Source: an uncultured Chloroflexia bacterium (lineage in GTDB: Bacteria; Chloroflexota; Limnocylindria; Limnocylindrales; CSP1-4). Taken from it: a DNA stretch of 64,000 nucleotides. The notes under the pieces were generated by a model. The model was not told the origin of the DNA and made no database searches. It saw only the letters and a list, made by a program, of their open reading frames with translations. The stretch's first letter is position 1, and every line of letters begins with the position of its first letter. The stretch covers positions 1,376,001 to 1,440,000 of the forward strand of contig OY970218.1 in the NCBI GenBank assembly GCA_963713975.1. Direction: 5' to 3'. A program made the translations under genes and the position numbers. Shown here in pieces: positions 15,164-46,928 of the stretch.

Positions 15164-15823
15164 TCAGCCGGGCCAGCCCGCCGTGCCAACGAGGGGGACG
15201 AACACACAGGCCCCTTCGGAGCGCTCGGACCATTCATCGCCGTGCCGCTCCACCACGAGCAGCCGCTGCTCCCGTCGCGAACCTACCGGGATCACGAGAC
15301 GTCGGCCCTCGGCGAGCTGGGTCCGGAGCGACTCGGGGATGGCCGGCGCGCCCGCGGCGACGAGGATCCCGTCCCATGGGGCGCCATCCGGGAAGCCAAG
15401 GCTGCCGTCGCCGGTGGTGACGGTGACGCGGTCCCCGAAGCCGAGGGTCGCCAGGAGCCGGCGGGCCGCGTCCGCCAGCCCGGCTTCGCGATCGATGGAG
15501 GTCACCAGGCAGCCCAGCTCCGCGAGGATCGCCGCCTGGTATCCGGAACCGGTGCCCACGTCCAGGACCCGGTCACGCGGGCCCACGGCAAGGAGCTCCG
15601 TCATGCGCGCCACGATGTACGGCTGGCTGATGGTCTGGCCGGCCCCGATGGGGAGCGGGTGGTCCTCGTACGCCTGGTCTCGGCTCGCCTCGTCGACGAA
15701 GGCATCGCGGGGCACGGCGGCCATGGCCTCGAGGACGTGGGGATCGCGGATGTCCCGGCCAACCAGCTGGTCGGCGACCATCCGCGCCCGGGCATCGCTC
15801 GCGCGGGCCCGGGACGAGCTCAT
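15164..15823 (-). CDS. pcm: Protein-L-isoaspartate O-methyltransferase
   Basis: AYEDHPLPIGAGQTISQPYIVARM, VLDVGTGSGYQAAIL and FVPLVG motifs. Confidence 0.93.
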   Translation of the reverse strand: MSSSRARASDARARMVADQLVGRDIRDPHVLEAMAAVPRDAFVDEASRDQAYEDHPLPIGAGQTISQPYIVARMTELLAVGPRDRVLDVGTGSGYQAAILAELGCLVTSIDREAGLADAARRLLATLGFGDRVTVTTGDGSLGFPDGAPWDGILVAAGAPAIPESLRTQLAEGRRLVIPVGSRREQRLLVVERHGDEWSERSEGACVFVPLVGTAGWPG

Positions 15824-15833
15824 GTCGCCGGGC

Positions 15834-16502
15834 CTAGCTCGCCGCTGGGCTCGGGGAGACCTCCGGGGCGACGGACGGCACCTCGGACGGCTCAGTGCTG
15901 GCCGCGGCGCTGGGTTCGGCGCTGGGTTCGGCGCTGGGTTCGGCGCTCGGCGGCGCGGCGCTGGGCGGTTCGGCGGAAGGCTCAACGCTCGGTTCGGCGC
16001 TGGCGGACGCGGACGGCGCCACCGACGGCGTGACCGACGGCTCGACGCTCACCGATGGCGCCTCGGTCTCAATCGGCGTGGGCGTCGCGAGCAAGGTGCC
16101 CAGGAACCCGTTCCTGCCCCCGATGAGGCCCCAGGCGAGGATCGCCACGAAGACGCCGACAACCGCGATCACGAAGATCGCCGAGGCCCGGTCCGTGACC
16201 TTGACTGCCTCATGGGCGACCGATGGCGCTGCCTGCGGCTGCTTTGAGCCTGCGTCCTTGGCGCCACGCTTCTTGCCGCCCGTGGCGGCTCCGTCTGCTG
16301 CGGGTGCGGCTGCCGCGGCCCCCAGCTCGGCATCCTCCGCGCTGAGCGTCCACGCTTCGGGCTCGGCGACGGCCGACTCGTCCGAGTCTGTCTCGTCTGC
16401 GGCGGTCTCGGCGTCGGGCGCCGTCTCGTCCTCGGGCGTGGTGCTGGCATCCGTCGCGGCTTCGGGGCCGTTGGCCTCCGGGTCGCGTTCCTGGTCCGTC
16501 AT
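15834..16502 (-). CDS. Single-TM protein with an acidic N-terminus and a Ser/Pro/Ala-rich (SAEP repeat) C-terminus
   Basis: GAGGAG SD, one hydrophobic helix, 12-nt tandem repeats at 15905-15947. Confidence 0.7.
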   Translation of the reverse strand: MTDQERDPEANGPEAATDASTTPEDETAPDAETAADETDSDESAVAEPEAWTLSAEDAELGAAAAAPAADGAATGGKKRGAKDAGSKQPQAAPSVAHEAVKVTDRASAIFVIAVVGVFVAILAWGLIGGRNGFLGTLLATPTPIETEAPSVSVEPSVTPSVAPSASASAEPSVEPSAEPPSAAPPSAEPSAEPSAEPSAAASTEPSEVPSVAPEVSPSPAAS

Positions 16503-16600: not shown

Positions 16601-18781
16601 TCACGCCTCGCGCACGGCCTTCACGAACAGCCCGGCAACACCCGCACCCACCGAGATCACGCCCGCCGCGAAGATCACGGGCCCTGGCCCGAGGACGGTG
16701 ATGAATAGGCCGCCCAGCGCCATCGCCAGCGACATCCCGCCGAACACCAGGGCGAACCGGAGGCTGACCACGCGCCCCATCAGCTCCGGCGGCGTGCGCT
16801 CCTGGAACAGCGTCTGGCTGGGGATCACGAAGGCCATGTTGGCGATGCCAAGGCCAAAGAGGAGTCCCAGCACCAGCGGGAGGCTGTCGGTGAGTCCCAG
16901 CACCATCGTGCCCAGGCCGAAGGCGATGTACGCCCCGATGATCAGCCTGCCCTTCCGGGCTCGGCCGGCCACTGCGCCCAGGGCGAAGCCGCCGATGAGG
17001 CTGCCGATGCCGATCGCCGTCTCCATGAAGGCGTACGTGGCCCGGTACGCGTCGCCGTCGCCGGGCGTGATCTCGCGGGCCAGGATCAGGCTGGCGACGG
17101 TGAGCACACCGAGCGAGAACTGCCCCGCGGTGCCCTGCAGGGTGTTGGCCAGCAGGACGGTCTCGTGGCGCAGGAACGCCCAGCCGGCCCTGAGGTCCTG
17201 GACGACGGTCGTGTGCGGCTCCTCGTACCTGGCGCCGCCGCCGTCCGGTGCCTCGATGTCGCCGGCATCCTCGGGGCCCCGGGCACGGCGGGCCAGCGGC
17301 GGCACGACCATCGTGCCCAGCAACACCGCGGAGGCGAGGTAGGTCACCGCGTCGAGCCAGAACGCAAGGAACAGCGAGGACTGCAGGAACGCAACGAACA
17401 GGCCGGCGATCGGGTAGTTGATGACGTCGGCAAGTGTCTCGCCCACCCACATGGCCGAGTTCGCGGCGAGCAGATCCTCCTCGGGAACGATGCGCGGCAG
17501 CACGGCCTGGCGGGCCGGCCGGAAGAAGATCGAGACCGTGGTGATCAGGAACACGATCGGGTAGGCGAGCCACACGTTCGTGAGCACCGCCACGGGAAGG
17601 AGCAGGACGCCCGCCGCTCGCAGGATGTCGGACACGATGAGGACCTGCTTCTGGTCCCAGCGGTCCACGTAGGCACCCGCGATCGGCGACAGGAGCAGGT
17701 TGGGGACCATGCCCATGAAGAAGGTCAATGCGACGGCCAGCGGCGAGTTCGTCAGCTCGTAGACAAACGCCGCCAGGGCGATCTGATTTACCCGGTCGCC
17801 GAACAGGCTGATGACCTGCCCGGCCCACAATGCCGAGAAGTTGGGGTTGAGCGCCAGACGCACGTACGGGTGCTGGCGCAGGTGCTCGAGGGCTGCCGGT
17901 CGCCGCCTCCCGATCGGGAAGGTCCCAAGGCCTTCCGCGGCCAGCGCGCCGCCGAAGCCCGTCTGGCCCGGGGCGGCCATCGCCGCCACGCGATCGTCGC
18001 CGGGTTCATCCGCCAGCGGGGCGAGGGCGGGTGAGGCCAGGCCCATGCCCCGCGCACCCATCATCAGCGGTCGCTCCAGGGCGATCGCGTCATCGAGCGA
18101 CGGCGTCAGGCCCGTGCCGGACCGGATCGCGATGCCGTCCTTGTCCACCGGGGCCGGCGTCCCGGGCAGGCGGGCGGTTCCGGCGAATCCGAGGTAGCGG
18201 CCCGTCTTGGCCTCGTCCGACGCGCGTCGTGCCTCGGCGGGTGTCCGCAGCAGCGTCGCGAAGAGGAAGAACGCCAGGCCCGCGGTCAGGAAGATGTCGC
18301 CGATCGACGCCACGTTGCGGAAGGGCTCGAAGGGGATCGGGATGATGTCGCCCAGCGCGCCAAGCCGGAGCAGGAACTCAGTGCTAAGGGGACCCGACAG
18401 CTCGAAGTGGAGCACCGAGTCCAGCGGCGGCGTCAGCCCCGAGGCGGCGTAGGCCTCATCCCAGACCGGCATGTAGCCACCGTTGGACAGGATCGCGATC
18501 GCGTTCAGCGAGACCCCGATGAAGGCGAGAGCGAGACCTGGATACCAGCGGTTGCGCCACAGGGCGAACAGCAGCAGCCCGTAGGCCAGGCCCAGCAGGG
18601 GCGCCCGGAACGCGTCCACGACCTGCACCCCGTACCCGAGGGCGGCCTCCGTGGCGAACCGGATGATGACCGCGAGGAACAGCAGCGGCAGGTAGCGGAG
18701 CCGGATCAGCGCCAGGTTCTCGAGCCGGCCGCCAAGGAGCAGGCCTAGGACGAGCCCGAGCGCGATACCGCCGATCAGCAT
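16601..18781 (-). CDS. DUF5317-like membrane domain fused to an MFS transporter
   Basis: N-terminal GGRLENL, NGGYMPV, LGDIIP and SIGD motifs; linker; C-terminal MFS with FSALWAGQVISLFGD, GAYVDRWDQK and QERTPPELMGRV. Confidence 0.8.
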   Translation of the reverse strand: MLIGGIALGLVLGLLLGGRLENLALIRLRYLPLLFLAVIIRFATEAALGYGVQVVDAFRAPLLGLAYGLLLFALWRNRWYPGLALAFIGVSLNAIAILSNGGYMPVWDEAYAASGLTPPLDSVLHFELSGPLSTEFLLRLGALGDIIPIPFEPFRNVASIGDIFLTAGLAFFLFATLLRTPAEARRASDEAKTGRYLGFAGTARLPGTPAPVDKDGIAIRSGTGLTPSLDDAIALERPLMMGARGMGLASPALAPLADEPGDDRVAAMAAPGQTGFGGALAAEGLGTFPIGRRRPAALEHLRQHPYVRLALNPNFSALWAGQVISLFGDRVNQIALAAFVYELTNSPLAVALTFFMGMVPNLLLSPIAGAYVDRWDQKQVLIVSDILRAAGVLLLPVAVLTNVWLAYPIVFLITTVSIFFRPARQAVLPRIVPEEDLLAANSAMWVGETLADVINYPIAGLFVAFLQSSLFLAFWLDAVTYLASAVLLGTMVVPPLARRARGPEDAGDIEAPDGGGARYEEPHTTVVQDLRAGWAFLRHETVLLANTLQGTAGQFSLGVLTVASLILAREITPGDGDAYRATYAFMETAIGIGSLIGGFALGAVAGRARKGRLIIGAYIAFGLGTMVLGLTDSLPLVLGLLFGLGIANMAFVIPSQTLFQERTPPELMGRVVSLRFALVFGGMSLAMALGGLFITVLGPGPVIFAAGVISVGAGVAGLFVKAVREA

Positions 18782-18815: not shown

Positions 18816-20249
18816 TCAGTTCGGCTCGGCCGGGCTCGCGGCCGGCCCGGTCTTGGTGAGCAGGGATGCCTGCGGCGTCACCTCGGCGGTGGCGTCGGGG
18901 CCGACAGCGGCGGACCGGTTTGCGTGCTGTGCGATCAGCGGAATGGGCGGTGTCTGCGTCGTGCGCCCGGGGTCTTCGACACCCTCCACCCAGTGCGTGT
19001 TGACGAACGCGTCCACCACCCTGGGGTCGAACTGGATCCCGGCGAACTTGCGCAGCTCGGCGAGCGCCTGCTCCGCCGTGAGCGGCGTCATCCGGTAAGG
19101 GCGAGCCGCGGTCATCGCCTCGAACGAGTCCGCGACGTGGAGGATCCGCGCCAGCAGCGGGATCTCATCGCCGATCAGCCGATCCGGGTAGCCGGACCCG
19201 TTGTACCACTCGTGGTGGTGGCGGATGATCGGCAGCTCGCGCGCCAGGCGAGTGACCGGCTGGATGATCTGCGCTCCCAGCACGGGGTGCGAGTTCATCA
19301 TCATCCGCTCGTCCCTGGTCAGCCGGTCCTGCTTGAGCAGCACCGAGTCCGGGACGCCGATCTTGCCCACGTCGTGCAGGAGGCCGCCCCACTCCAGGGC
19401 CTCCAGGTCCGCAACGCCGAGCCGCATCACGGCGCCTATGTCGCCGGCGATCGTCTTCACCCGCCTGGAGTGCTGCCCAGTGAACGGGTCGCGGTTGTCC
19501 ACGGCGTGCGCCAGCGCATCGATGGTCTGCGTGAACATCTCGCGCATCTCGGTGTAGTTGAGGTACGCCAGCCGGGTCATGTACAGCGGCAGCGCGAACA
19601 GCAGGCTGGCCCAGGCCGCGATGACGTAGATCTGCGCCATCAGCCAGCCAATCGGCGCAATGCTGAGGATGCTAGACGCGATCCCCTCGGCCTCGCCTCG
19701 GATAACGCCAGTCGCACTCTGGCCCGTGCGGAGCGACACCGACACGGCCGTGAGGCCAGCATTCAGCGCCAGGAAGACACCTCCGCCGACCATTGCCACC
19801 ACGAACGAGACGGGATCCTCAAGAGGACGACCGGGGACACCAAAGCCGCGCATCACGAGGCCCGCAACGACAATCGGCATCACCACCCCGCCTCGATTGG
19901 CGAGTGTGCCGTACCAAGGGATCTTGAGGCGGATTTCCCTCATCTCAGTGATTCCGATCAAGCCCACCCACGCGCCTGCGGTCGGACCACCCAAGACCGT
20001 TGCCGCCAATAGCGTCGAGACTGAGACTGCAAAGACCGCACCACGGGGCATCCGGACGGGTAGCGCGGATGCAACGAGCGTAACCATGATCCAGAAAACC
20101 AGTCCCGCCACCGGAGCAGCAGCAACTCCGAAGACTTCAGGTGCCAAGGCAATGTCGCTTGCGAGGGGAATCAGAAGAGTCGTGGCAATCAGCGCAATTG
20201 CGCTCATCACCACGACCCCAGTGATATAGAGCTTCAGGTTCCTCGACAT
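18816..20249 (-). CDS. Membrane-bound HD-GYP phosphodiesterase with a multi-TM N-terminal sensor
   Basis: HDVGK, HHEWYNGSGYP, RILHVAD and RPYR motifs; about 6-7 TM helices in the first ~230 aa. Confidence 0.9.
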   Translation of the reverse strand: MSRNLKLYITGVVVMSAIALIATTLLIPLASDIALAPEVFGVAAAPVAGLVFWIMVTLVASALPVRMPRGAVFAVSVSTLLAATVLGGPTAGAWVGLIGITEMREIRLKIPWYGTLANRGGVVMPIVVAGLVMRGFGVPGRPLEDPVSFVVAMVGGGVFLALNAGLTAVSVSLRTGQSATGVIRGEAEGIASSILSIAPIGWLMAQIYVIAAWASLLFALPLYMTRLAYLNYTEMREMFTQTIDALAHAVDNRDPFTGQHSRRVKTIAGDIGAVMRLGVADLEALEWGGLLHDVGKIGVPDSVLLKQDRLTRDERMMMNSHPVLGAQIIQPVTRLARELPIIRHHHEWYNGSGYPDRLIGDEIPLLARILHVADSFEAMTAARPYRMTPLTAEQALAELRKFAGIQFDPRVVDAFVNTHWVEGVEDPGRTTQTPPIPLIAQHANRSAAVGPDATAEVTPQASLLTKTGPAASPAEPN

Positions 20250-20338: not shown

Positions 20339-20428
20339 CTAGAAGCCCTTCAACGAAGCTCCTCCGGCGAGCGCCATTGCGGCGACTGCGCCTAGAGCAA
20401 CCAGGGCTCGCATGAGGCGATCCTTCAT
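20339..20428 (-). CDS. 29-aa micropeptide MKDRLMRALVALGAVAAMALAGGASLKGF, a putative signal-peptide-like precursor
   Basis: Translated by hand; GGAGGA SD at 20436-20441, 7 nt from the ATG; n/h/c signal-like layout. Confidence 0.8.
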   Translation of the reverse strand: MKDRLMRALVALGAVAAMALAGGASLKGF

Positions 20429-20454: not shown

Positions 20455-20487
20455 TTACCAGCCCTTGAAGACCTGGATCGGTGCCAC
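20455..20487 (-). CDS. 10-aa micropeptide MAPIQVFKGW (GTG start)
   Basis: Perfect AGGAGGT SD at 20494-20500, 6 nt from the GTG; C-terminus FKGW resembles LKGF of the neighbouring peptide. Confidence 0.65.
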   Translation of the reverse strand: MAPIQVFKGW

Positions 20488-20520: not shown

Positions 20521-20557
20521 AACACGAAAACCGACCTGACTCGAAAGCCGGTCGGTT
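20521..20557 (-). terminator. Intrinsic terminator forming the riboswitch expression platform
   Basis: Minus strand AACCGACC-GGCT-TTCG-AGTC-A-GGTCGGTT followed by TTCGTGTT; the 5' arm is the 3' end of the aptamer. Confidence 0.75.
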
Positions 20558-20628
20558 GCACTACTCACTCCGCCCCCACCCTAAGTGCCCAATTCAGGTG
20601 GCGGCATCAGCGCGTTCCGAGCGTTTCC
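20545..20628 (-). ncRNA. Cyclic di-GMP-II riboswitch
   Basis: Minus strand GGAAC..TGATG..CCACCT-GAATTGGGCACTT-AGGGTGG..GAGTGAGTAGTGCAACCGACC matches class-II hallmarks, including the GCACT/AGTGC pseudoknot. Confidence 0.9.
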
Positions 20629-20665: not shown

Positions 20666-20695
20666 ACTATAGGTACGGTCAACATCACCGGTCAA
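20666..20695 (-). promoter_or_regulatory. Sigma70-type promoter for the riboswitch/peptide/HD-GYP transcript
   Basis: TTGACC-N18-TATAGT on the minus strand. Confidence 0.7.
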
Positions 20696-20764: not shown

Positions 20765-23700
20765 TCAAATGTCGTCGAATCGTGGGGGATCCGCGCCTAA
20801 CTCTCCCCGGATGTAGGCGGCATAGTGAGCGTACTGTTCGGCGGCCGCCGCATGCCTATCACCCGCCTTGTAGGCCTTCAGGAGCGCGAGCTCGATCCCA
20901 TCTGCACCAGGATCCACGGCCAGCATGGCCTGAGCCAGGCGCGTCGCACGGTCGATGTTGCCCTCTGCCGTGGCTCGTCGGATGCCAGACTCCACGGACG
21001 CGAGAACGGACGCGTGGAGGTTCTCGCGGTAGCTTGTCGCCCAATCCTCATACGTGAAGTCCAGGGCATACCTGCCGCGATACGTGGCAACGAGCTGGTC
21101 GAGCGCGTCCTCCTTGTCACTACAAGTGACGTCCACGAGCCGCTGGCACTTGCGGCTCTGACTGTCCACCAGGGCCGGGTGTAGCGATAGGACGTCACCA
21201 TCGAACTCCACGTACCCAGCGCTCGTGCCCTCTCGGTACGTGGGCTCGAAGACTCGGCGAAGGTAGTAGATCGTCTGGTGCAGGGAGTTGACCGCCGTGT
21301 CGGGACCCAAGTCGGGCCAGATCGCGTCCAGAGCCTCATCACGCGTGGCTGCCATCCCCGGGCGGGAGGCCACGAAGCACAAGAGGCCCATGACCTTGCG
21401 GCGCAGCGTTCTTACATGGTTCTCCACTCCGATCTGAACCGTGACCGGCCCAAGATCGTGGATGAGTACTCGAGGCGCCAGTCGATGGGTGATCTCCGCA
21501 GCGATGGGCCGTAGCCACTTCCGTGACGCAGCAGCGGCGCGCAAGGCAGAGGCGTCATGCTCGTTGCCGATGTCTGCAAGGAGCCTTGCCGCAAGCGGGT
21601 CAGCCTGGTAGACCATCCTCAGGGCCGTAATCCATCGGTCTGGTCGAAGCGTGGCCTCACGGGTGACGCGGAGCCGACTCTCGGTGTCAAGCTCCGGCAG
21701 ACTCCGACACACTTCATCGGCGAGCATCGACAGAACATGATCCTCATCAGGCATGAGGCGGGCAACGGCGCCGTCAGGCCGCCCATCCTGCAATCCTCGT
21801 AGCAGGTCGGCGATCACGGCCTCCAGGCGGGAGCCCTGAGCCGCGGCGATCCGTGTGAGTTCCGCGATTTGGCCATCTGCGAGCCTCGAGCGGGTGGCGA
21901 GCGAGATGCGCGCTCGAAGCAGGCAGACTCGGAACTTGCCAGCGGCATCTTGGAGAGCCCCGCCGGCCAGCGCCACGCGCTCAGCTGCTATGACCGGCTC
22001 CCCACGACGTAGCGCGATGGTGCCGGTTGCCACCGCCCAAGCTCCCAAGTAGCCCGTTGACAGTGCAGCTTGACCAACGCGAGCCGCCGCAGACTCCGCG
22101 CGCTCGAGGGAGCCGTAGTCCCCGAGCAAGCGAGCCGCCTCGATCGCTGCCTCGTCTCGCGCAACTGGAGTGGACGCTTCGTCGATTAGTGCAGCCATTC
22201 GATCAAGCGGCTCAGTGGCGCCAAGTTGAAGCTGTGCCGCAATCCGAACGGCAATGGCGGCGACTCTCTCCGGACTCGTTGGAGACGCCCCGAGGCTTAG
22301 CTCGGCCGTGCCGGCTACGTCGGCCGCGTCTCGGCTGCGTCCCATCCAAAGCAGGATCACTGCGAGGTTAAGGCGGGTGATCCCTGCGTACCGGACGTGG
22401 CCCGCGGCATCCTGAATCTGGGCTAGACCGACTAGGTAGTCGGCAACGGCGGCCAGACTGCCTTCCTGCTGAGTACTCCAGACGGCTAGCGAGGCCTCGG
22501 CGACCATTCGCTCCGCAGGTGCTAGGTCCCCTTCCATTGCTCGCGTCGCGAGCTTGATCGACTGCTCGTCAAATCCATGTCGAGCCAGAATCGCCGTTAG
22601 GTTGAGGAGGCCCAAGCTCGCTAGCGAGGTGCCCTCGCCGACTTGTGAGCCCAACTGCGCCAGTTCGATCGCTCTGGCGAGATGCCCGCGCTCGAGCTCG
22701 AGCCGTGACCGGAGGATGAGAACGCCGGGTCGGTCGGGAGGCCCGGCCGAACCGTCTAGAAACTGCCGCGCCAACTCAAACCCTCCGGATGCAATGATCG
22801 AGGGGATGGCTGCGTCTAGGGTCCGGGCAGCCGAGTTCATGTCGCCGGCTGCGCGATAGTGCCAGGTGGCCGGGAGCCAAGCGGAATTCTCCAGAGCAGT
22901 CCCGAGCGCCTGGTGAAGGTCTCGCACTGCGGCTTCGCCGATTTCGGCTGTCAGGCGTGCCACGAGGAACTCGCGGACCAGGGGGTGGAACCGGTGGGGC
23001 GATTCACGGTCTGGCCGGGAGAGGAGCCCGAGCCGTTCGGACTCGCGGATGGACACCGCGATGTCATCGGCAGGCCGCTCGTCCACCAAGACCGCCATGT
23101 TCACGTCCACGGCCGTGAGCACCGCGACACGGGTCAGGAAGTGCTGAAGCTCCGGCGGGAGCGTGGCGAGCACCTCCTCGGCCAGGAAGTCATACAAGTC
23201 GCCGCGTGACGCATCGAGGTGGGCGACCAGGACTCGAGGGTCGTTGTGCTCCTCAATGCTTGTGCGGACGAGCGTGAGCAGGGCCGCCCACCCCTCCGTC
23301 CGATCGCACAGGTCAGCAGCAACCTGGGCGTCCAGGGGTTGCCGGTAGGCGTCCCTGAACAGGCGGGACGTCTCGTCGAGGTCGAAGCAGAGGTCCCTCC
23401 CTTCGATGGCCAGCACGCCGCCCCGGGCGCGAATGCGCCCCAGCGGGAAGGCGGGTGTGGAGCGTGTTGCGATGACCACGGAGTAGCCAGGTGCGGTCCG
23501 ATCCAGGAGGGCTCGCACGATGGGGTCCGTGTCCGGGCATCCGTCCACGACGTGGTAGTCATCGAAGATCAGCGTCAGGCCGTGCGAGCTACCAGTCCCG
23601 AACTCCGCCATCTCGCGGGCGATGCTGACGGTGAGGTCGTGCTGCGTCGGACCACCCGGCCCGAGGGAACCGAGGAGGTCGAGCGTCTGCGGCGCGAACC

Positions 23701-23977
23701 CGGGGTCGATCTCGCGACCGCTCGCGACCAGGTGGCGGATGAAGGTGAGCCAGTCCCGGTCATCCGCCTCCAGCCGGTACCAGGCCGTCATTCGCGTCGT
23801 CTGGACGGCCCAATCGGCGAGCAGCGTGGTCTTGCCGAAGCCGGCCTCCGCGACGATGAGGCCGAGGCGTCCCGCAGCCGCGCGGTCCAGCCACGAGTTG
23901 AGGCGCTCGCGCGACAGCGTGTCGTCGCGCGGCGGCGGGCAGTGGATCTTGACCGGCTGCACGGGCAGGGGATTCAT
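20765..23977 (-). CDS. Large MalT-like STAND ATPase / TPR / SARP-wHTH-BTAD transcriptional regulator
   Basis: AEAGFGKTT Walker A, FDDYH, TEGWAA and RFHPLVREFL; helical TPR-like middle; TRDEALDAIWPD, NSLHQTIYYLRR and YRGRYALDFTYEDW; start set at MNPLPVQPVKI (the ORF extends to 24241). Confidence 0.85.
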   Translation of the reverse strand: MNPLPVQPVKIHCPPPRDDTLSRERLNSWLDRAAAGRLGLIVAEAGFGKTTLLADWAVQTTRMTAWYRLEADDRDWLTFIRHLVASGREIDPGFAPQTLDLLGSLGPGGPTQHDLTVSIAREMAEFGTGSSHGLTLIFDDYHVVDGCPDTDPIVRALLDRTAPGYSVVIATRSTPAFPLGRIRARGGVLAIEGRDLCFDLDETSRLFRDAYRQPLDAQVAADLCDRTEGWAALLTLVRTSIEEHNDPRVLVAHLDASRGDLYDFLAEEVLATLPPELQHFLTRVAVLTAVDVNMAVLVDERPADDIAVSIRESERLGLLSRPDRESPHRFHPLVREFLVARLTAEIGEAAVRDLHQALGTALENSAWLPATWHYRAAGDMNSAARTLDAAIPSIIASGGFELARQFLDGSAGPPDRPGVLILRSRLELERGHLARAIELAQLGSQVGEGTSLASLGLLNLTAILARHGFDEQSIKLATRAMEGDLAPAERMVAEASLAVWSTQQEGSLAAVADYLVGLAQIQDAAGHVRYAGITRLNLAVILLWMGRSRDAADVAGTAELSLGASPTSPERVAAIAVRIAAQLQLGATEPLDRMAALIDEASTPVARDEAAIEAARLLGDYGSLERAESAAARVGQAALSTGYLGAWAVATGTIALRRGEPVIAAERVALAGGALQDAAGKFRVCLLRARISLATRSRLADGQIAELTRIAAAQGSRLEAVIADLLRGLQDGRPDGAVARLMPDEDHVLSMLADEVCRSLPELDTESRLRVTREATLRPDRWITALRMVYQADPLAARLLADIGNEHDASALRAAAASRKWLRPIAAEITHRLAPRVLIHDLGPVTVQIGVENHVRTLRRKVMGLLCFVASRPGMAATRDEALDAIWPDLGPDTAVNSLHQTIYYLRRVFEPTYREGTSAGYVEFDGDVLSLHPALVDSQSRKCQRLVDVTCSDKEDALDQLVATYRGRYALDFTYEDWATSYRENLHASVLASVESGIRRATAEGNIDRATRLAQAMLAVDPGADGIELALLKAYKAGDRHAAAAEQYAHYAAYIRGELGADPPRFDDI

Positions 23978-24338
23978 CGGGAACCCGCCCGTGGTGCCGC
24001 CGAGCAGCACGGAAGCGGCCAAGCCCGGCCCGACGGCGACCAGCCCATGCCCGTTGCGTTCACCCCTCGCCCGCGGTGTTGGCCGGGGCCTGGGGGCCGG
24101 GCCCATGCCACCACTCGCCGGAGACGATACGGCAGCGCGATGTGGGGCCGGGGCGTGCTTCTGCACGGGTTGGACCTGGTGCGCGGTCTCGATGGGGTCG
24201 GGGAGGCGATCGCGGTCAGACCGCCGAGTGGTCGGGAGCATGTGGCGAATGGTGCCGGGCGCCGCTCAACGCGCGCTTATGCGCTCAGGCCCGATCCGGT
24301 CTGCCTCGCGAGTCGCCGGATCGACGATCCGCCGCAGC

Positions 24339-45648: not shown

Positions 45649-46928
45649 GGCGCCGCCGCGCCGGGCGCGTCCTCGACCGGCTCCGGCATCGTGACGATGT
45701 GGCGCACGGATGACAGCGTCACCGGCAGGAATGCGATCAGTCCTCCGATCGCGCCCACCCAGATCGTCGCGTGGAGCCCGATCAGGCCGCCCAGCACGCC
45801 ACCGATCAGCGCCCCGATCGGCATCGTGCCCCACACGATGAAGCGCATCGTGGCGTTCATCTTGCCCTGCATCCGCGGCGGCGTGATCGCCTGGCGGAGG
45901 GACACCTGGTTCACGTTCCATGTCACTCCGGCGAACCCGCCCAGGAGGCCGGACAGGGCGAGGGCCGCGAAGATGAGCTCGTCGGGTGCCATCGCCACGG
46001 GCAGCCAGGAGACGCTGAACATGACGGAGCTCAGGACCAGCATCCGGCCGACCCCGAGCCACCTCGTGAGCCGCGTGGTGGTGAGGGCCCCGGCGAGGAA
46101 CCCGATCGACCCGATGGAGAAGGCGAGCCCGATCCCGGCCGCACCCATGCCACGCTCCTGGGTGAGGTAGAGGATCAGGACGCCGAAGATGACGTTGCCG
46201 AAGAAGTTGGAGGTCCCGGTGGTGGCGGCGATGGGGCGCAGCCAGCGGTTGCCGCCCACGTACCGCAGCCCAACGGCGATCTCCCGGCGCATCGAGGGCT
46301 TCGGGCCGTGCACGGCCTCGTCGTGCTCCTCCATCGGCGGCTCAGGGCGCCGGATCCAGAACAGGAACGCCGCCGAGAACAGGTAGCTGATCGAGTCGAT
46401 CAGCATCGCGATCGGTGCCCTCAGGACTTCGATCAGGATGCCCGCCAGGCCAGGGCCGAGGATCTGCGCCGCGGCCCGCGTGATCTCGAGCTTCGAGTTG
46501 CCCTCGACGAGCTGGTCGCGCTCGACGATAGAGGGCAGGTAGCTCTGGTAGGCCACGTCGAAGAAGACGGTGAAGGTGCCGTTGATGAAGCCGACCAGGT
46601 ACAGCTGCCAGATGGTCAGGGCGTCGAAGTAGAACGCGATCGGGATCGAGAGAATGGTGGCCGCCCGGCCGAGGTCGGCAACGATCAGGATCGGGCGGCG
46701 GCGGAGGCGGTCCACCCAGACGCCGGCCGGCAGGCTGAACAGGATGAAGGGCAGGAACTCGATCGTCGTCAGCAGGCCGAACTCGAACGGGGTGACCCCG
46801 AGGATGGTCGCCGCGATGATCGGTAGGGCAAGCTGGGTGATTGCGCTGCCGGACACCGAGATGGTCTCGGCCGTCCAGAGCTTGAGGAAGTCTGGGTGGC
46901 GCAGGAGGCTGCGACTGGGTCCGGTCAT
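45642..46928 (-). CDS. MFS transporter
   Basis: FLKLWTAETIS, GVWVDRLRRR and RQAITPPRMQGK motifs; about 12 TM helices. Confidence 0.9.
   Translation of the reverse strand: MTGPSRSLLRHPDFLKLWTAETISVSGSAITQLALPIIAATILGVTPFEFGLLTTIEFLPFILFSLPAGVWVDRLRRRPILIVADLGRAATILSIPIAFYFDALTIWQLYLVGFINGTFTVFFDVAYQSYLPSIVERDQLVEGNSKLEITRAAAQILGPGLAGILIEVLRAPIAMLIDSISYLFSAAFLFWIRRPEPPMEEHDEAVHGPKPSMRREIAVGLRYVGGNRWLRPIAATTGTSNFFGNVIFGVLILYLTQERGMGAAGIGLAFSIGSIGFLAGALTTTRLTRWLGVGRMLVLSSVMFSVSWLPVAMAPDELIFAALALSGLLGGFAGVTWNVNQVSLRQAITPPRMQGKMNATMRFIVWGTMPIGALIGGVLGGLIGLHATIWVGAIGGLIAFLPVTLSSVRHIVTMPEPVEDAPGAAAPA

Follow-up and report, generated by a model that had tools for sequence, protein, structure and literature searches.

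The window analysed here, a 64,000-nucleotide stretch from the genome of an uncultured Chloroflexia bacterium (GenBank assembly GCA_963713975.1, contig OY970218.1, positions 1,376,001 to 1,440,000 of the forward strand), encodes a protein in which a membrane domain of the DUF5317 family is joined to a transporter of the major facilitator superfamily (MFS). Its gene is the last of an operon that runs from a promoter through a class II cyclic di-GMP (c-di-GMP-II) riboswitch, two mini-protein genes (pepA and pepB) and the gene of a membrane HD-GYP enzyme to the open reading frame (ORF) of the DUF5317-MFS fusion (Table 1). MFS, HD-GYP and DUF5317 are recurrently associated.

Table 1. Features of the operon, of its upstream regulator gene and of the fusion ORF, numbered from the first nucleotide of the window.
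Feature	Positions	Strand	Remarks
STAND/BTAD regulator	20765..24241	-	1158 aa; AAA_16, winged-helix Trans_reg_C and BTAD (Pfam); directly upstream of the operon
Sigma-70-like promoter	20666..20695	-	TTGACC-18-TATAGT; consensus match only; one site against a shuffle mean of 0.6
c-di-GMP-II riboswitch aptamer	20543..20626	-	Rfam RF01786; 51.1 bits, E 3.8e-9, model positions 1-84 of 84
Terminator-like hairpin and T-rich run (expression platform)	20529..20553	-	overlaps the 3' end of the aptamer
pepA	20455..20487	-	10-codon ORF; GTG start, AGGAGG upstream; ends KGW
pepB	20339..20428	-	29 aa; signal-peptide-like; ends ALAGGASLKGF
Membrane HD-GYP c-di-GMP phosphodiesterase	18816..20249	-	477 aa; N-terminal multi-pass membrane part, HD_5 at 246-411
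DUF5317-MFS fusion ORF	16601..18781	-	726 aa; ATG start; single ORF
DUF5317 domain	18242..18781	-	residues 1-180; Pfam, AlphaFold2 model and conservation
Linker	17846..18241	-	residues 181-312; low complexity; no Pfam match
MFS domain	16601..17845	-	residues 313-726; DHA3/MFS_3-like efflux type

The fusion protein and its DUF5317 domain

A preliminary description of this DNA, made from the sequence alone, had noted a DUF5317 domain joined by a linker to a complete MFS transporter, and both the ORF and its Pfam matches bear this out. DUF5317 (PF17248) matched residues 26-173 of the whole ORF with 90.5 bits (cut-off 25), over positions 2-150 of the 151 in its profile, and the isolated domain with 93.2 bits. 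MFS_1 (PF07690) matched residues 318-686 with 115.2 bits against a cut-off of 33.4 (profile positions 1-346 of 347); MFS_3 was matched as well, and FPN1 weakly. Among the NCBIfam models, that of the DHA3 group (TIGR00900) was covered over its full length (1-364 of 364) at 208.8 bits, which is below its cut-off of 319.6, so that the transporter is DHA3-like rather than a certified DHA3 member. Models for Mef (87.7 bits), Tet(V) (80.8 bits) and EntS also matched and, together with the DHA3 match, identify the MFS part as efflux-type. A motif-A-like DRWD (D373, R374, W375) is invariant in the fusion alignment A4. The linker (~130 aa) is rich in Ala, Gly, Arg and Pro and would act as a cytoplasmic tether between the two domains. 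Two of its stretches are kept across 42 aligned fusions, ERPLM(L/M)G (residues ~233-242, with R237 and P238 at 90% or above) and HPYVRL (304-309, just before the MFS domain, with Y306 and L309 invariant and H304 and P305 conserved too), and these may be docking motifs.

The fusion is class-wide, genuine and vertically inherited. It lies on one 3.62-Mb contig in a genome with a single DUF5317 copy, and a database search with residues 1-190 as the query matched 1008 proteins of 399-1271 aa. DUF5317 and MFS were both present in all 120 of the matches listed, and the named proteins among these are labelled Candidatus Limnocylindrales or Chloroflexota. Our sample of the phylum comprised 301 genomes, with DUF5317 found in 92 (a tally that includes G227, flagged as unpublished). 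Open frames of at least 612 aa surround the DUF5317 match in all 16 genomes of the window's family and in 13 of the 15 genomes of a sister family in the same class, so that the survey of fusion frequency that had been proposed gave, by frame length, 29 of 31 genomes of the class. One of the two exceptions is a frame ended by a contig end, and the other (G115) is a standalone DUF5317 behind an HD-GYP gene. Elsewhere, full-length DUF5317 matches occur in frames of ~170-360 aa or form the C-terminal part of longer ORFs that lack an MFS. The MFS part was seen directly in all ten fusion loci fetched; it is continuous with DUF5317 in nine of them and separated from it by a frame change in L016. Frames split in two or three were seen in the regulator, HD-GYP or fusion genes of L014, L015, L016 and L027, probably owing to frameshifts in the assembly of metagenome-assembled genomes.

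The DUF5317 motifs that had been singled out (N93-AIAILS-N100-GGYMPV, L143-GDII and V157-ASIGD162) are all present in the translation and are conserved far above chance. In an alignment of 50 sequences with identities down to 22%, G102, D145, S159, G161, D162 and G168 are invariant, and N77, P81, G82, N93, N100, M104, P105 and P150 are kept in at least 90%. Across 337 domain rows, many of them from close relatives, S159 and G161 are retained in all, D162 in 336, and D145 and N93 in 335 each. The AlphaFold2 model of the domain (pLDDT 96.2, pTM 0.89) has five long helices (residues 2-15, 31-49, 59-76, 83-99 and 160-178), with four short strands (104-107, 125-128, 145-149 and 156-159) and two short helices between the fourth and the fifth. 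D145 starts the strand 145-149, S159 ends the strand 156-159 and D162 starts the last helix; the beta hairpin should, in the model, bring these three residues near one another.

The Arg-rich segments of the domain are the loops 16-30 and 76-79 and the part after residue 180, and the loop 102-155 carries seven acidic and two basic residues. MFS proteins have a cytoplasmic N-terminus. Taken together, these features predict an N-terminus outside and a C-terminus inside for DUF5317, a topology that would place N100, D145, S159 and D162 on the outer face of the membrane as a conserved Asn/Asp/Ser/Asp cluster.

DUF5317 has no detectable structural or sequence relative. Single-sequence and profile searches of the PDB gave no match, Foldseek of the model against the PDB gave none at E ≤ 0.001 (best E 3.4), VIA-align against 48,161 chains gave none with a Z of 8 or above (best Z 7.6, a designed helical barrel) and a search of the ESM Atlas for look-alikes gave no usable match. 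The family is abundant, with 2453 cluster representatives matched at E ≤ 0.001, and the controls Thermus thermophilus and Thermotoga maritima were positive for it. No paper in the literature searched mentions DUF5317.

The HD-GYP enzyme, the mini-proteins and the operon leader

The HD-GYP gene lies directly upstream of the fusion in all ten fusion loci. Its HD_5 domain (PF13487) scored 139.5 bits against a cut-off of 27.2, and the motifs LLHDVGK and GSGYPD are intact in its translation.

The mini-proteins are nearly as constant. Homologues of pepB, the 29-mer of the preliminary description, occur in nine of the ten fusion loci. The pepB of the window starts with a basic N-terminus that leads into a hydrophobic run, and its short tail is directly preceded by Gly-Gly. 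At the position of pepA, an ORF of 8-10 codons ending K[GS][WF] was likewise found in 9/10 loci. The product of pepA is leaderless and shares its tail (KG[WF] in the window) with pepB, in the window and in nine of the ten fusion loci. Co-folding of DUF5317 (alignment A1) with the 29-mer (A3) scored 0.39 against 0.01 for the best control, a result graded as "weak support": the mark used is reached by 116 of 157 solved complexes and by 2 of 215 mismatched pairs, and scores of 0.60 or less comprise 18 of the 157 and both mismatches. At least 90% of the contacts agreed between runs and the pLDDT of the partner was at least 66, but a partner of fewer than 30 residues lies outside the calibration, so we take the predicted contact as a weak hint of engagement.

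In the leader, an RF01786 element reaches the gathering score at the same position in eight of the ten related fusion loci, with one further element at 38.8 bits and one locus in which none was detected. A homologue of the STAND/BTAD regulator lies upstream in nine of the ten fusion loci and also at the standalone DUF5317 loci L024-L026. Since the terminator-like hairpin shares bases with the closing helix of the aptamer, transcription should not terminate while the ligand is bound. A high c-di-GMP level would thus turn the operon on and the HD-GYP enzyme would lower c-di-GMP again, that is, feedback through a probable ON switch.

One related locus (L019 3200-3780, genome G178) has a leader that seems to have decayed: neither a riboswitch nor pepA was detected and the membrane part of the HD-GYP protein is shortened; a pepB-like sequence ending AIASGASYRPF was seen there by eye only. 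Downstream of the fusion in the window lie genes for a weakly conserved, Ala/Pro/Glu-rich single-pass protein of 222 aa (15834-16502, minus strand; 3/10 loci) and for a protein-L-isoaspartate O-methyltransferase (15164-15985, minus strand; 6/10 loci). Both look like synteny, outside the module.

Standalone DUF5317 genes and an alternate fusion

The linkage to HD-GYP genes extends to DUF5317 proteins that carry no transporter. In all six loci from other Chloroflexota families an HD-GYP gene adjoins the standalone DUF5317 gene, as it also does in L054. Next to their standalone DUF5317 genes, L024-L026, L028, L029, L030 and L032 have ORFs that we define as pepB-like by four features: a basic start, a hydrophobic run of at least 12 residues, a G-A-[GSN] motif and, after it, 3-12 residues of tail. 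In L030 (genome G285) a c-di-GMP-I-GGC riboswitch (RF03167; 3308-3384, minus strand; 61.6 bits against a gathering score of 59) is located between the standalone DUF5317 gene and two pepB-like mini-ORFs, and a second riboswitch class is therefore tied to the same gene pair. In L048-L053 (G288, G228, G248, G256, G191 and G017) DUF5317 forms the C-terminus of ORFs of 379-680 aa, in whose N-terminal parts no Pfam domain was found; some of these parts contain weak internal repeats of the first DUF5317 helices. Two fragmentary proteins (P0220, 358 aa; P0260, 417 aa) have HD_5 joined directly to a DUF5317 segment; they are examples of a third kind of fusion or else result from reading through two neighbouring genes.

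An alternate fusion was found in family f17 (loci L056-L060 and L027), which the sources label Candidatus Dormibacteraeota. The gene order in all six loci is a pepB-like ORF, a terminator hairpin, one gene and a standalone DUF5317 gene (~195 aa), and in five of the six the middle gene is a single ORF of 844-847 aa made up of a membrane domain, HD_5 and a complete MFS. Both HD_5 and MFS were present in all 120 of the best database relatives of this ORF. The pepB-like proteins of this family consist of MKK, a hydrophobic run and AILAGGAN followed by three residues, and the hairpin behind their ORF is strong, GC-rich and followed by a T-run, which suggests that pepB is made in excess over the enzymes. 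Upstream of the pepB-like ORF lies the C-terminus of a LuxR-type helix-turn-helix regulator; neither a c-di-GMP riboswitch nor pepA was found at the f17 loci. When the MFS domain of the window was used as the query, the f17 fusion was the best match in three of three such genomes. An MFS that is fused to DUF5317 in one class and to HD-GYP in another argues that the three parts work together.

The window also contains a DHA3-like MFS paralogue (45729-46895, minus strand; L066), which in the MFS tree clusters with a paralogue from Dormibacteria and away from the fused MFS.

Candidate roles and comparison with known systems

We tentatively read the operon as a peptide-handling membrane module tied to c-di-GMP turnover, in which DUF5317 would engage pepB, the MFS part would export a peptide and the HD-GYP enzyme would be under peptide control. 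DUF5317, the HD-GYP enzyme and the MFS would probably sit in one complex; direct contact is favoured because the gene linkage spans families. At the outer leaflet, the polar pocket at the predicted outer end of DUF5317 might bind or cut pepB at its small-residue motif and tail, and the peptide exported by the MFS might be leaderless pepA or a released pepB tail. The state of the peptide would then set the rate at which the HD-GYP enzyme breaks down c-di-GMP.

Several results weigh against this reading. The second standalone DUF5317 copies (L030b, L031 and L033) have neither an HD-GYP gene nor a mini-ORF that we could see, and a Pfam scan of the neighbours of the second copies in L030-L033 returned nothing related to c-di-GMP, with a crude choice of ORFs in high-GC DNA. 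The riboswitch aptamer of the window is 2.4 bits short of the RF01786 gathering score of 53.5, and the membrane part of the HD-GYP protein matched MASE9 (PF20972), a membrane domain of c-di-GMP enzymes, at E 0.81 over positions 27-193 of the 203 in the profile, with 10 bits where the cut-off is 24.3. In family f17 pepA is absent in spite of the MFS, so pepA and the MFS are not strictly coupled. The pepB-like tails there are variable and only 3-4 residues long; such short tails would suit a subunit embedded in the membrane no less than a released signal and, with the absence of pepA, disfavour the latter. As to the transporters, the reverse MFS search had another paralogue as its top single match, and in the MFS tree both fused groups branch, together with unfused paralogues, from a single fork that is not resolved (support 87/94). 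A common origin of the two fused MFS is therefore not established.

It is possible, although on balance unlikely, that no peptide is processed or carried at all. In such an arrangement the MFS would move a small molecule, DUF5317 and pepB would be accessory or regulatory membrane subunits, as AcrZ is on AcrB and MgrB on PhoQ, and the whole would be a transport-coupled sensor setting HD-GYP activity. The matched MFS families are drug and siderophore exporters, the alternate fusions argue for one physical complex whatever its cargo, and the f17 tails suit an embedded subunit; yet two Asp, one Ser and two Asn kept nearly invariant at one face are what one would sooner expect of a site for catalysis or ligand binding than of a surface for docking. 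The tail itself seems to be functional, as it recurs on leaderless pepA in the window and in most fusion loci, and the f17 terminator points to pepB in excess over the enzymes, both of which count against this reading; the intramembrane ligand binding proposed for MASE9 (10.1101/2021.11.05.467447) counts in its favour.

In a more specific version of the peptide-handling module, which we regard as doubtful, DUF5317 domains are aspartic endopeptidases embedded in the membrane and form a new family, unrelated to the lipoprotein signal peptidase LspA but convergent with it. They would cut the Gly/Ala motif of pepB-type proteins on the outer leaflet and release C-terminal peptides of 5-12 residues which, with MFS-exported pepA-like copies, would be sensed by membrane HD-GYP/GGDEF enzymes. 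Catalysis is favoured by the pattern of invariance and by the f17 terminator after pepB, and by these only. If true, this would be a peptide-to-c-di-GMP signalling route at least across the Chloroflexota and perhaps beyond, Thermus and Thermotoga having DUF5317 as well.

By analogy with LplT-Aas fusions, DUF5317 could instead be an enzyme acting on lipids or envelope precursors in the outer leaflet, with the MFS as its flippase. The polar cluster at the membrane boundary would be in keeping with this, and the MFS part does match the NCBIfam models of an LplT-type acyl-ACP-phospholipid acyltransferase fusion (76.4 bits) and of LplT (37.1 bits). The DHA3, Mef and Tet(V) models score higher, however, and the idea leaves unexplained why mini-protein genes and c-di-GMP enzymes so constantly accompany DUF5317, which makes it improbable.

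The preliminary description had proposed that DUF5317 is an LspA-like aspartic peptidase of the signal peptidase II type, kin to LspA or closely modelled on it, which cuts the 29-mer and hands the product to the MFS for export as in peptidase-containing ABC transporters (PCATs); in this form we consider the proposal very improbable. The local likeness on which it was founded does stand. LspA (MEROPS A8, PF01252) is likewise a small polytopic membrane protein, with its two catalytic-site Asp 18 residues apart (D121 and D139, numbered in the relatives aligned here) against 17 for D145 and D162 of DUF5317, and in both families a conserved Asn precedes the pair. The LspA dyad lies near the outer surface beside a beta-cradle, as described for the S. 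aureus structures (PMC6952399), and the Asp pair of DUF5317 is predicted on the outer-surface side next to membrane-lying strands. The candidate substrates are alike as well: pepB, too, is a helix that resembles a signal peptide and has small residues at its boundary.

The kinship did not hold: we reject it on the grounds of sequence, profile, helix count and substrate. A Pfam scan of the domain at E ≤ 10 returned DUF5317 only, with no Peptidase A8. In an alignment of 14 LspA sequences (from this genome and 13 relatives) the invariant residues are D24, K28, N56, G58, G108, N109, D112, R113, V119, D121, F132, N136, A138 and D139, in agreement with the conserved set published in PMC6952399. The pattern that the invariant columns of DUF5317 share with these is "Asn, then two Asp" only; the N-terminal Asp/Lys pair and the GNxxDR motif have no counterpart. 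hhalign of DUF5317 against the 14 LspA sequences gave a probability of 4.5% and paired residues 7-51 with LspA 94-141, that is, the first two DUF5317 helices with the C-terminal half of LspA, leaving the Asp motifs unpaired. No LspA chain was present among the 90 Foldseek rows or the VIA-align top 50 (lowest listed Z 5.4). LspA has four transmembrane helices (PMC6952399), against five in the model of DUF5317, whose N-terminus is predicted to lie outside. A canonical LspA is encoded in all 26 genomes searched, this one included, and none of nine aligned pepB sequences contains Cys and hence a lipobox. In the absence of any profile or sequence match, and given the five helices, the separate LspA and the Cys-less substrate, DUF5317 is not a member of the LspA family, and the remaining likeness is a local one, of two Asp near the outer surface beside membrane-lying strands. 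The looser idea, in which an Asp pair at the predicted outer face would act on a mini-protein resembling a signal peptide and the MFS would be the exporter, survives as a candidate, with cleavage as a putative step.

Least credible of all is that assembly or gene calling artificially fused two separate genes: two relatives do show split frames (DUF5317 and MFS in two frames in L016, the HD-GYP-MFS gene in pieces in L027), but the ORF is continuous on its 3.62-Mb contig and recurs uninterrupted in 9/10 loci, in 29 of the 31 class genomes and in 120/120 of the matches listed, so the artefact envisaged in the preliminary description was not borne out.

The peptide-handling module bears on a wider problem, as many membrane-anchored c-di-GMP enzymes are without a known input signal and a peptide-handling complex is a testable candidate for one. 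DUF5317 is a widespread domain without detectable relative that is genetically tied to tiny membrane peptides and c-di-GMP-degrading enzymes, with alternate fusions to an exporter in two Chloroflexota classes, and D145, S159, D162, N93 and N100 are the residues singled out by our analysis. If catalysis is true, DUF5317 is a new membrane peptidase family; otherwise it is a new accessory module of second-messenger signalling. A description of the module was found nowhere in the literature searched on MASE9, HD-GYP, small proteins and the c-di-GMP-II riboswitch.

Among known systems, PCATs couple the processing of double-glycine peptides to their export. The fusion would share with them the principle of linking a processing domain to an exporter, and pepB has a Gly-Gly just before its tail. 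The fusion ORF, in contrast, has neither C39 peptidase nor ABC domains in Pfam, its putative processing domain would face outwards within the membrane and its transporter is an MFS. For the streptococcal SHP and ComS pheromones, which are small hydrophobic peptides, Eep is the membrane protease that does the cutting, PptAB the exporter and the cytoplasmic regulator Rgg the receptor. They resemble the present system in a precursor of 20-35 aa whose N-terminus is basic and whose body is hydrophobic, in a functional C-terminal 7-9-mer, and in the proposed pairing of a membrane protease with a dedicated exporter. They differ in the families of protease, exporter and receptor, the presumed receptor here being a membrane c-di-GMP enzyme and release being putative.

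Closer to the HD-GYP gene are the HD-GYP/GGDEF enzymes of the MASE9 type, which are likewise membrane-anchored and whose input signal is thought to act within the membrane, where the defining paper proposes ligand binding (10.1101/2021.11.05.467447). The source of the MASE9 type protein, Thermotoga maritima, also has DUF5317. The HD-GYP protein of the window, however, falls below the MASE9 cut-off, and the available text of 10.1101/2021.11.05.467447 describes no partner proteins for MASE9 enzymes. Tiny membrane-associated proteins directly behind c-di-GMP riboswitches are also known from Clostridioides difficile (PMC13724677, 2026), where they are 58 aa long, are modelled as four-helix bundles with a C-terminal hydrophobic helix and follow class I OFF switches; in its available text, the paper reports no homologues outside the species. 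The mini-proteins described here have 10 and 29 aa; the aptamer in front of their genes is of class II and probably an ON switch, and the HD-GYP and DUF5317-MFS genes come after them.

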